DNA from: a virus
Length of the DNA stretch: 14,369 nt
Reading direction: 5' to 3' (one strand)
UHGV virus genome: UHGV-0126033
Positions 825-5,916 of the stretch are shown here, in pieces. The translations under genes and the position numbers were made by a program. Positions within the stretch are counted from its first letter, which is position 1. Each line of letters opens with the position of its first letter. Under the pieces are notes generated by a model. The model ran no database searches, was not told where the DNA came from, and saw only the letters and a list, made by a program, of their open reading frames with translations.

Positions 825-1385
825 TTAAACCATAAAACGAGCGCGGCGGATTCTGCGTGCAAAGCGTGTCTTGCTGGTGCTGAACCTTTGGTTGCGCAGA
901 TGCTCACGCAGCACCATGCTCTTGTAGCGCTCAGCTTCCTGTGCGTAATTAGCGTAGTTGCTATCGCCGCCCAGGTCGTTGAGGTACACCTGTGCAGTGG
1001 TATAGTTAGCCACCCACATAGCTGCATGCTCCGGCAGGTCCTCAAAGTCCAAGTCAAGGACTATTTTGAGCTTAACGGAGCTGTCGAAGTATTGGTTCTG
1101 CTCCATCAGGTCGTACAGGTTCCCATCACGCACCCCGTACTTGGAGTCAGAGCCAGCATCGTACACAGCCAACTGGTTCCACGGCACTTTGATAAAACCG
1201 TCAGCAGTGGGAGCAACTTCACGCTCTACCACGTTAAACCAGAATCCTGTGCTGAGTAACCCGCGACGATTGCGCGCAAGCGCAGAGCGAGCTAACCCCG
1301 CACTGGGGTTACTGGTGTTGATGTCCATAACGCGAGACTCCCCCAGGGCTTCAAGCGTCAGGTTCACAGCATCTAATTCTCTCAT
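825..1385 (-). CDS. Tail tubular protein A (T7 gp11-like)
   Basis: Track ORF 825..1460, but the likely start is the ATG at 1383-1385 (MRELDAVNLTLEALGESRV...) with AGAGGA upstream. The longer version would run through the terminator hairpin. Overall resemblance to T7 gp11 from memory (N-terminal A-V-N-x-x-L-x-x-IGE pattern, similar length). Stop TAA at 825-827. Confidence 0.8.
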   Translation of the reverse strand: MRELDAVNLTLEALGESRVMDINTSNPSAGLARSALARNRRGLLSTGFWFNVVEREVAPTADGFIKVPWNQLAVYDAGSDSKYGVRDGNLYDLMEQNQYFDSSVKLKIVLDLDFEDLPEHAAMWVANYTTAQVYLNDLGGDSNYANYAQEAERYKSMVLREHLRNQRFSTSKTRFARRIRRARFMV

Positions 1386-1430
1386 ATTTGTTCCTCTATT
1401 AAAGACCCCTTGGACCCTTAAGACAGGGAC

Positions 1431-1467
1431 AAAAAAAAAGCCCCTGGCACCCGAAGGCACCAGGGGC
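1431..1467 (-). terminator. Rho-independent terminator between the capsid-distal small ORF and the tail tubular genes (T-phi-like position)
   Basis: Minus-strand RNA reads GCCCCUGGUGCC-UUCG-GGUGCCAGGGGC followed by nine U. That is a 12-bp GC-rich stem (two G-U pairs), a UUCG tetraloop and a U9 tract, directly seen in the sequence. Confidence 0.8.
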
Positions 1468-1472
1468 GCGTA

Positions 1473-1655
1473 CTACTCTTCCGTAGTATCAGCGGCTACG
1501 TCAACCGCCTTACGGGTTTTCTTGGTAGCCTTGCGGCCAGACTCGACCGAAGCCACCTGGATGTTCTTCGCTACATCGGTGGCGGCCTTAACCGCCTCCC
1601 GCTGAGCTGCATTGGCCTGGAGAGTCTCCAGACCGAACGTAGCAATTACTGCCAT
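1473..1655 (-). CDS. Hypothetical small protein (60 aa, Lys/Ala-rich) immediately after the capsid gene
   Basis: ATG at 1653-1655 with GGAGG five nt upstream. Lies in the -1 frame relative to the capsid gene and is followed by the terminator. No recognisable motif. Confidence 0.55.
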   Translation of the reverse strand: MAVIATFGLETLQANAAQREAVKAATDVAKNIQVASVESGRKATKKTRKAVDVAADTTEE

Positions 1656-1666
1656 TGAACCTCCAA

Positions 1667-2686
1667 TTAGGGCTTGGTGGTGAAGGTGAACTTGGTCACT
1701 GCAGCGGTGTCCGGACGGCGCAGGCCGATGTTGTACATCGCGTAGCAGTCCAGCACGTTGCTGAACTCGCGCTCATCATCCCAGATACGGGAGGTGAACG
1801 GCTTAGCTTCAACAGTCACCAGGGTCTTGGACTTGCTGAAAGTCACCATACGGCACAGCGCGTCGTCAGAGGTGACGGTGTAAGCAGAGCCCAACGGGTG
1901 CGTACCGGCAGCGGTCGGGAACTCGGTGCACTCTACCACAGGCACGCCGTTCATCTTCACTACACGGCGGTCTTTGTAACCGTCGTTGTTGGATGCACCG
2001 AAGTCCAGGTTCAGGAGCTTCGGATGCTCCAGCAGACGCGAATAGGTATCGACATCCACCAGGGTAATCATGTCCGCCAGCGGGGTCTTGCGCTTGATGA
2101 GTTCATCGATACCAGCCTTGTGGGCCAGGTTGATGTTCATAGCGTTCGCCTCCATCTCAGCCTGGGTCAGCTGCGTGGCGGTGGTGGTACCCGGAACCAG
2201 GACGGCTGCGCCCACCTCGATACCGTCATTGAATGCTGGTTTCAGGTGCGCCGGAGCAACCCAGGAGCGGCCCTTGATGAGCTGAATCAGGTGCGCCTGG
2301 TCGAAGGTCTCCGCGAACTCAGAGCCGTTGTTCTGACCCATCTCGGTCAGGAAGTCCGGACCGGTCCAGTCATCCTGGTAGTCAATCGGGTTACGGATAT
2401 ACAGCACCGTATCCACCACGATAATCATCTTATCGTTACGGACCGGGGTGCTATCCAGCGCCTCACCGGAGCGACGACCTTTCACCGAGGAGGTGTTCAG
2501 GCGGTCAATACGGTAGGTGTTGGAACCACTGATAGAGCGCTGGCTGGAGAGGCCCAGGAACAGAGCCTGGTACTGGAAGCGGGTGTCGACTTCATTCTGG
2601 TACACTTCCAGGTGAATATCGACGTCAGACGCCGCGCCTGCCCAGTGGGCTCTTGTCAAGTTAGCTTTATAGATGGTATCGGCCAT
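1667..2686 (-). CDS. Major capsid protein (T7 gp10A-like)
   Basis: 339 aa, ATG at 2684-2686 with AAGGAAAG upstream. C-terminal YAMYNIGLRRPDTAAV resembles the T7 gp10A C-terminus (AKYAMGHGGLRPEAAGAV) as I recall it. Position after the scaffold gene and similar length to T7 10A (345 aa). Confidence 0.88.
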   Translation of the reverse strand: MADTIYKANLTRAHWAGAASDVDIHLEVYQNEVDTRFQYQALFLGLSSQRSISGSNTYRIDRLNTSSVKGRRSGEALDSTPVRNDKMIIVVDTVLYIRNPIDYQDDWTGPDFLTEMGQNNGSEFAETFDQAHLIQLIKGRSWVAPAHLKPAFNDGIEVGAAVLVPGTTTATQLTQAEMEANAMNINLAHKAGIDELIKRKTPLADMITLVDVDTYSRLLEHPKLLNLDFGASNNDGYKDRRVVKMNGVPVVECTEFPTAAGTHPLGSAYTVTSDDALCRMVTFSKSKTLVTVEAKPFTSRIWDDEREFSNVLDCYAMYNIGLRRPDTAAVTKFTFTTKP

Positions 2687-2698
2687 ATTCTACTTTCC

Positions 2699-3175
2699 TT
2701 ATTTAAGTACATTAACAGATGCATAAGCATGCATCTTTGCTTTAGCTTTCAGGTAGGCATCTCGCGCTGCGTGTTCGCAGTCAAAGTGCCCGAGGTGTGT
2801 TGTCTTACCATTTAGCTGTATGTAGGCCCGCCACTTGTTAGCTCGGGAATCCCAACAATAGCCTTTCCACACAGAGTTCTGAGCGTTACCTGATTTGTCA
2901 ACTAGGCGCAGGTTCTCAATTCTATTGTCTGCTTTATCCAGATTAATGTGGTCCACCATCAACCCTTGGGGTATATCCCCGTGATGCATGAACCAAACAA
3001 GCCGGTGTGCATACTCTCTCACCCGTCCCGCTGCCCCGCGGTCCCAGGTCACGCGGCGGTATCCCCAGTTATTCTGGTAGGTATCACCGAAACGACCTGT
3101 GGCCTTGTTAATCAAGCGCCCGTCTTCTGTGTAGGTGTAGCGATTAGCTAGTTCTTGCAAGAGATTAATCTCCAT
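2699..3175 (-). CDS. Free-standing HNH homing endonuclease with AP2-like DNA-binding domain
   Basis: 158 aa. HNH region YAHRLVWFMHHGDIPQGLMVDHINLDKADNRIENLRLV and AP2-like region WDSRANKWRAYIQLNGKTTHLGHFDCEHAARDAY. No clear Shine-Dalgarno; starts 12 nt after the scaffold stop. Confidence 0.85.
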   Translation of the reverse strand: MEINLLQELANRYTYTEDGRLINKATGRFGDTYQNNWGYRRVTWDRGAAGRVREYAHRLVWFMHHGDIPQGLMVDHINLDKADNRIENLRLVDKSGNAQNSVWKGYCWDSRANKWRAYIQLNGKTTHLGHFDCEHAARDAYLKAKAKMHAYASVNVLK

Positions 3176-5649: not shown

Positions 5650-5916
5650 TTACAGGCCCAGAGGATTGCTCTGCCCTGCTTGTCGCCGTTTCTTCTGCTC
5701 AGACGTAATTGCATCTGCAGATTCAGAGGCAGCCCCTGCGGGGTCAATCTCAGCAATGTTATCTGCGGCGCTATTAGCCTCTAAGGCAGCCTGTTGTTTA
5801 GCTGCGCTGGCCTGCTGCTCTGCCAAGCGCTGCTGCGCCTCTAATCCTGCGTTGTCAGTAAGGCCGAGCATGTCCGTGGCCTTACCTAACAGCTTACCTA
5901 AATTACCACCACTCAT
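5650..5916 (-). CDS. Hypothetical protein (88 aa, Ala/Gln-rich)
   Basis: ATG at 5914-5916 overlaps the upstream gene stop as ATGA; GAGGT upstream. Lies between RNAP and portal, where phiKMV-like phages carry small genes of unknown function. Confidence 0.5.
   Translation of the reverse strand: MSGGNLGKLLGKATDMLGLTDNAGLEAQQRLAEQQASAAKQQAALEANSAADNIAEIDPAGAASESADAITSEQKKRRQAGQSNPLGL

Follow-up and report, generated by a model that had tools for sequence, protein, structure and literature searches.

Genes around the capsid gene of a Klebsiella Drulisvirus

The DNA analyzed here, henceforth termed the window, is a stretch of 14,369 nucleotides from the virus genome UHGV-0126033. It belongs to a Klebsiella Drulisvirus, i.e., a KP34-like podophage, and carries every gene on the minus strand. 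A megablast search with positions 1300-2900 matched 306 phage records at full coverage and identities of up to 95%, with 234 of the records coming from Klebsiella phages. KpV74, an annotated relative (Drulisvirus, Autographiviridae, Slopekvirinae), shows the gene order collar, scaffold, HNH endonuclease, capsid, hypothetical protein, terminator, and tail tubular protein A. The major capsid protein gene of the window occupies positions 1667-2686 (minus strand), encodes 339 aa (37.6 kDa), and ends in a TAA stop codon at 1669..1667. Its product matches the major head protein family phrog_267 (E 1.8e-96) and is near-identical to the chain 'major capsid protein gp17' of the PDB entry 23sf (E 1e-223), and the homologous gene is annotated as capsid in both KpV74 and KP34.

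The capsid stop codon is followed by an 11-nt spacer and a small ORF at 1473-1655 (minus strand), which starts with ATG and encodes a protein of 60 aa and 6.3 kDa. Embedded in the spacer is a GGAGG Shine-Dalgarno sequence (1660-1664, minus strand), located 4 nt before the ATG. An intrinsic terminator identified by a terminator scan (1430-1467, minus strand) begins 5 nt past the stop codon of the small ORF and consists of a 12-bp stem with nine G-C pairs, a 4-nt loop, and a T9 tail. Rho-independent terminators are annotated at the equivalent place in KpV74, KP34, and PM16, and hairpins come after the small ORF in related lineages. With a strong terminator directly behind it, the small ORF closes the transcription unit of the capsid gene as its final member. 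An Rfam search of the whole window returned no match.

Beyond the terminator lies the gene for tail tubular protein A (825-1385, minus strand; 186 aa; Pfam Tube PF17212, E 1.3e-24; phrog_446). The same protein of 186 aa is encoded in a related locus from the comparison described below (L012), and the gene is annotated in KpV74 and KP34. The program-made ORF list gives a longer, GTG-started version of 211 aa (825-1460, minus strand) that crosses the terminator; the true start is the ATG at 1385, as in the relatives. Two further genes in the neighborhood deserve mention. One, at 2699-3175 (minus strand; PF13392, E 2e-19; phrog_99), is a free-standing gene for an HNH/AP2 homing endonuclease that lies between those for scaffold and capsid. 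It looks like a mobile insertion, because the gene is missing from many relatives that are otherwise 94-95% identical and whose matches start at query position 182, immediately ahead of the capsid start. The other, an 88-aa ORF at 5650-5916 (minus strand) upstream of the portal gene, matches the 87-aa chain 'gp20' of PDB entry 23sg at E 5.5e-45 and shows a weak match to a 'tail channel protein' (9s0y, E 0.002). These matches identify its product as a small virion protein from the portal and tail region whose structure has been resolved.

A conserved small gene upstream of the late terminator

The small ORF matches the family phrog_7403 from end to end, with residues 1-60 aligned to profile positions 1-60 (E 2.5e-40). 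By tblastn, 249 phage records were found to carry it as an ORF of its own, at 80-100% identity and mostly under the annotation 'hypothetical protein'. Matches in a large protein database were likewise unnamed, 'hypothetical', or automatically named (e.g., 'Capsid and scaffold protein' or 'putative transcriptional regulator'), and searches of Pfam and NCBIfam yielded no match. The ORF is under purifying selection: pN/pS amounts to 0.20 overall, with 0.14 for codons 1-40 and 0.32 for codons 41-60, and is thus comparable with that of the capsid gene (0.13). The small ORF is thus an already-annotated gene known in hundreds of phages, to which the window adds one more member.

The encoded protein is composed of an N-terminal MAVIATFG motif, a predicted helix, a Lys/Arg-rich tail, and an acidic end; its N-terminal peptide is (M)AVIATFGLETLQANAAQR. 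The AlphaFold2 models, which are of low to medium confidence, show one long helix; pLDDT was 77.5 when only the single sequence was supplied and 59.9 when an alignment of 12 sequences was used. Searches of the PDB at E values of up to 10, conducted with the single sequence as well as with a 13-sequence profile, returned noise only, such as the coiled coil of the proteasome subunit Rpt1 at E 0.37. Differences among phages are concentrated in the C-terminal tail (1473-1520, minus strand), where the last 10-20 residues vary. The protein occurs in a 60-aa and a 65-aa form, and several phages match over residues 1-49 alone, at 100% identity. Because the length forms differ and pN/pS is higher in codons 41-60, the tail is variable or mosaic.

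Reading frame of the small ORF relative to the capsid gene

The codon phase of the small ORF is one base behind that of the capsid gene, which places the ORF in the capsid -1 frame. A first-pass annotation of the window had called attention to this relation and reported, from translation by hand, that no stop interrupts the frame over the 39 codons before the ATG, back to a TGA at 1773-1775. It further drew a parallel to the capsid proteins 10A (345 aa) and 10B (398 aa) of phage T7, which arise by a programmed -1 frameshift reportedly described by Condron, Atkins and Gesteland in 1991. Our reading of the minus strand confirmed the phase, and translation of positions 1656-1772 (minus strand) gave 39 sense codons with no overlooked stop, bounded by TGA TGA at 1778..1773. 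The T7 lengths and the GGAGG and ATG that the annotation had assigned to the small ORF itself are likewise correct. A hypothetical fusion of capsid, linker, and small ORF would comprise 399 aa and 43.6 kDa, compared with 37.6 kDa for the capsid protein. Its trans-frame peptide, running from the capsid C-terminus through the -1 linker into the small ORF, would contain, for example, ...HQALIGGSMAVIATFGLETLQANAAQR, while a peptide through the -1 linker would be, for example, CSDQVHLHHQALIGGSMAVIATFGLETLQANAAQR.

The length of the open stretch is near chance level. Stops make up 6.8% of -1-frame codons in nine genes of the window, which gives a 39-codon open run a probability of P = 0.063. Open runs of at least 39 codons occur 15 times in the 3185 codons, and one of them, with 78 codons, is situated within the capsid gene. 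A scripted scan found no X_XXY_YYZ heptamer in the entire capsid gene, which extends the earlier statement that the overlap lacks a canonical slippery heptamer. Neither an X_XXN single-tRNA slip site nor a homopolymer of four or more bases occurs in the last 39 capsid codons. As a positive control, the scan flagged the GGTTTTC sequence of T7 gene 10 at codon 342. The sole TTTC in the capsid gene of the window is located at codon 283, from where the -1 frame runs into a stop after 10 codons.

Capsid-small ORF junctions in close relatives

For comparison, 80 loci with relatives of the capsid gene were taken from IMG/VR, and the capsid stop codon and the small ORF following it were located in each. 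A close homologue of the small protein is present in 60 loci (the window and KpV74 counted), which together represent 53 distinct junction sequences. Stop codons interrupt the -1 frame in 29 of these 60 close relatives. The junction of 15 loci reads GGAGGTTAAATG, with a TAA in the frame of the small ORF directly before its ATG, so that read-through from the capsid gene into the small ORF is impossible in these phages. Eleven other loci have -1-frame stops 7 to 14 codons upstream of the ATG and three more have them 26-27 codons upstream; examples of closed loci are L045, L040, and L049. The frame is open in KP34 (L039), as it is in the window. Across all 60 loci, including those with a closed frame, the small protein is 80-100% identical. 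Its ATG is kept without exception and the GGAGG in 58 loci, with GGGGG in the remaining two. Conservation of the -1-frame overlap among relatives, which the first-pass annotation had proposed to examine, was not borne out, given the stops in nearly half of the loci, whereas its simpler reading, independent initiation at the GGAGG and ATG, is supported by the retention of both signals and by the pN/pS of the ORF.

Synonymous diversity is 0.146 in the last 39 capsid codons vs 0.208 in codons 1-300. Values below that of the overlap were obtained for 25 of 301 segments of 39 codons, and one internal segment is equally low. As the overlap is not exceptional among the 301 segments, there is no sign of dual coding at the 3' end of the capsid gene.

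In L012, whose capsid protein is 98% identical, an inserted 87-aa gene separates the capsid stop from an intact small ORF. This gene (2538-2801, plus strand, in that locus) encodes a Tad2-like Thoeris anti-defence protein (PF11195, E 1.3e-22), and its stop codon overlaps the ATG of the small ORF as TAATG. The site just upstream of the late terminator thus accepts accessory genes. In L014 (about 2517-2545) and in L085, i.e., phage GZMU_VR401 (270-1304), the capsid stop codon TAA is changed to TCA. The capsid protein, 344 aa long in GZMU_VR401, is thereby lengthened by a few residues, and in both loci its new stop codon overlaps the start codon of the small ORF as TAATG. The capsid C-terminus thus tolerates a short extension.

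Post-capsid ORFs in distant lineages

Other lineages also carry a small ORF behind the capsid gene, with an N-terminal MA-[VLI]-[ILV]-x-[TSK]-[FIYV] motif followed by a helix and a Lys-rich tail. In 12 lineages, we compared the phase of the capsid gene with that of the ORF that is homologous or equivalent in position, and found the ORF four times in each of the three phases (-1, 0, and +1), with spacers of 4 to 90 nt. A spacer of 11 nt in one and of 12 nt in the other gives even two close relatives, the phiKDA1-like loci L058 and L060, different phases. A hairpin or terminator-like structure separates the capsid gene from the small ORF in five of the 12 lineages. A programmed fusion would need a conserved phase, which these lineages do not show.

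The HRP29-like loci L068-L070 have a different basic ORF of 42 aa (MAKVIDLRAKW...) after the capsid gene (about 2510-2640). This ORF is in the -1 phase as well, but with a TAA or TGA directly before its ATG, and a PDB search with it gave no match.

Possible association of the small protein with virions

A candidate counterpart of the small protein is known from Proteus phage PM16 (Novosibovirus, Slopekvirinae), in which gene 32 encodes a 46-aa protein with a calculated mass of 5.05 kDa that is annotated as 'virion protein'. According to the summary of earlier work in PMC8310086, the proteins identified by mass spectrometry of PM16 include a free 5.1-kDa virion protein. Direct BLASTP of the small protein against PM16 gp32 produced no match. 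Full-length colinear matches were obtained transitively in a 14-sequence database with lenient search settings (e.g., window to L066, 5e-8; L066 to PM16, 7e-4; PM16 to Buco, 6.5e-5), and these matches, together with synteny, hint at weak homology between the small protein and PM16 gp32.

By analogy to PM16, the small protein is possibly a virion-associated or head-assembly accessory protein, and we consider virion association to have a somewhat less than even chance. PM16 is the only source of evidence that post-capsid small proteins enter virions, and our search for literature on the virion proteome or cryo-EM of Drulisvirus phages recovered nothing directly relevant. Two findings speak against assigning the protein firmly to the virion. 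The mass-spectrometry lists of proteins detected in RS1pmA and RS8pmA virions do not include the PM16-type small protein, and the near-identical Drulisvirus cryo-EM entries 23sf (capsid), 23sg, and 23sh (portal) have no chain matching the small ORF, even though the 87-aa gp20 is modeled in 23sg. Since its chain is missing from these entries, the small protein, if in the particle, would have to be disordered, asymmetric, or present at low occupancy. A bolder proposal is that the protein is a genuine virion component of KP34-like podophages, in which a hydrophobic N-terminal helix binds the capsid or the portal while the Lys-rich tail touches DNA; we regard this as a long shot.

Discussion

Our comparisons show that the small ORF is an independent gene that is under selection and has no conserved frameshift. 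In our assessment, it is very probably a separate late gene expressed from its own GGAGG and ATG, with a coincidental -1 phase and no programmed capsid extension.

The contrasting idea, in which a T7-like programmed -1 frameshift within the last 39 capsid codons generates a minor capsid protein of 399 aa (43.6 kDa), draws on real features of the locus. The -1 frame is open in the window and in KP34, 339 plus about 60 aa parallels the two T7 products in size, and the small ORF occupies the position of the T7 10B tail from the capsid stop to the late terminator. Moreover, the KP34 paper of 2011 describes an extra 42-kDa virion band and speculates about a frameshifted capsid protein (PMC3082699). 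However, this band was larger than that of the capsid by only about 3 kDa, and the fusion would exceed the capsid protein by 6 kDa, and a 2026 paper reports that phiKMV-like phages make one capsid isoform (PMC12846835). The sequence comparisons point in the same direction: the overlap contains no slip site or homopolymer although the same scan detects that of T7, many close relatives have closed the frame, about half of those directly before the ATG, phase changes from lineage to lineage, and a whole gene separates the two ORFs in L012. The overlap is under no special synonymous constraint, its open run is near chance level, and neither BLASTP nor hhalign, with the small ORF and its family profile as queries, detected similarity to the T7 10B tail. 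A frameshift product is thus very improbable, and the analogy to 10A/10B suggested by the first-pass annotation does not extend to the mechanism. Still less credible is the assumption that the ORF is no gene at all, but a frame left open by chance in untranslated sequence that separates the capsid gene from the terminator. Its shortness, the failure to match Pfam, NCBIfam, or the PDB, and the low-confidence structure prediction would be compatible with this assumption. Against it stand the full-length PHROG match, the occurrence in 249 phage records, the low pN/pS, particularly in codons 1-40, the conserved Shine-Dalgarno sequence and ATG, the survival of an intact ORF behind the gene inserted in L012, and syntenic counterparts in other genera, one of which, that of PM16, is listed as a virion protein in the summary cited above.

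A third alternative concerns the function of the product, which might be an ordered capsid decoration or cement protein resembling the alpha-claw of PhiM1 and HRP29. The small protein is predicted to be helical and is co-expressed with the capsid protein, and by eye its residues 19-22 (REAV) can be compared with RDAV at residues 18-21 of PhiM1_47. We nevertheless rate this identity as unlikely. No PDB chain was matched at E values of up to 10 even though the database contains related capsid entries. Such a chain is also missing from the near-identical Drulisvirus capsid entry, and AlphaFold2 gave one long helix in a low-confidence model rather than a helix-turn-helix. The PhiM1 protein is also encoded after the terminase and not after the capsid gene: PhiM1_47 and PhiM1_48 lie behind maturase B, and Arg18, Asp19, Leu22, and Lys23 fit the description in PMC11440229. 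With PhiM1_47 encoded elsewhere in the genome and sharing no detectable sequence similarity with the small ORF, we rejected it as the counterpart.

For the separate late gene that we favor, expression probably proceeds as follows. The small ORF, of the KP34 gp43 type (phrog_7403), would be transcribed together with the capsid gene ahead of the main late terminator and translated from its own GGAGG and ATG, 11 nt beyond the capsid stop. Ribosomes that finish the capsid gene would probably re-initiate there; the short stop-to-start distance with its embedded Shine-Dalgarno sequence and the natural TAATG variants suggest such translational coupling between the two genes. The -1 position and the 39 open codons would then be accidents of the 11-nt spacer and of a GC-rich, codon-biased capsid 3' end. 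The predicted product is a helical peptide of roughly 6 kDa whose N-terminus is conserved and hydrophobic and whose tail is rich in Lys and Arg. Ribosome-dependent anti-termination, which was considered on account of the stop codon 5 nt from the terminator stem, was set aside, as the stop-to-stem distance varies among relatives; in addition, transcription by the phage RNA polymerase is not known to be coupled to translation.

These results remove a tempting recoding annotation, one that had also been a subject of speculation for KP34. In practical terms, the capsid gene and the 60-aa ORF should be annotated as two genes, and peptide display on Drulisvirus capsids cannot count on a naturally occurring minor isoform. 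Of continuing interest is a conserved, presumably highly expressed small late protein encoded after the capsid gene in several KP34-like genera.

Comparison with known systems

Among known proteins, KP34 gp43 and KpV74 gp42 of phrog_7403 are the same protein as that of the window, encoded at the same position between capsid gene and terminator with the same Shine-Dalgarno sequence and ATG. There is no substantive difference; the member in the window has a few substitutions in the C-terminal tail. PM16 gp32 is similar in being encoded directly after the capsid gene and before a terminator and in combining an MA-hydrophobic N-terminus with a helix and a Lys-rich tail, but with 46 aa it is shorter, and its gene is in frame 0 relative to its own capsid gene, behind a 9-nt spacer. 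The alpha-claw proteins of PhiM1 and HRP29 are small helical accessory proteins of KP34-related podophages, as the small protein may be; they differ in their genomic location after the terminase and in forming helix-turn-helix homodimers that are ordered on the capsid, and no relation to it was detected in sequence.

The likeness to T7 10A/10B is one of layout: in both, about 55-60 codons in the capsid -1 frame separate the capsid stop from the late terminator, with comparable sizes. In contrast to T7, which has the slip site GGTTTTC at codons 341-342, the window has none, and its small ORF possesses a strong Shine-Dalgarno sequence and ATG of its own in a phase that is not conserved. We also observed that the 10B tail of T7 (L084, about 1095-1263) contains an in-frame ATG overlapping the 10A stop codon (GGAGTAATG), with GGAG before it. 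This ATG opens a 52-aa ORF that ends at the 10B stop just before the T-phi terminator, i.e., at the position of the small ORF in the window. The in-frame ATG and the GGAG are compatible with descent of the 10B tail from a once-independent gene. Should the bolder proposal made above for the small protein hold, KP34-like podophages would supply an accessory polypeptide of roughly 6 kDa in trans where T7 frameshifts, and the 10B tail of T7 would come from such a once-independent gene.
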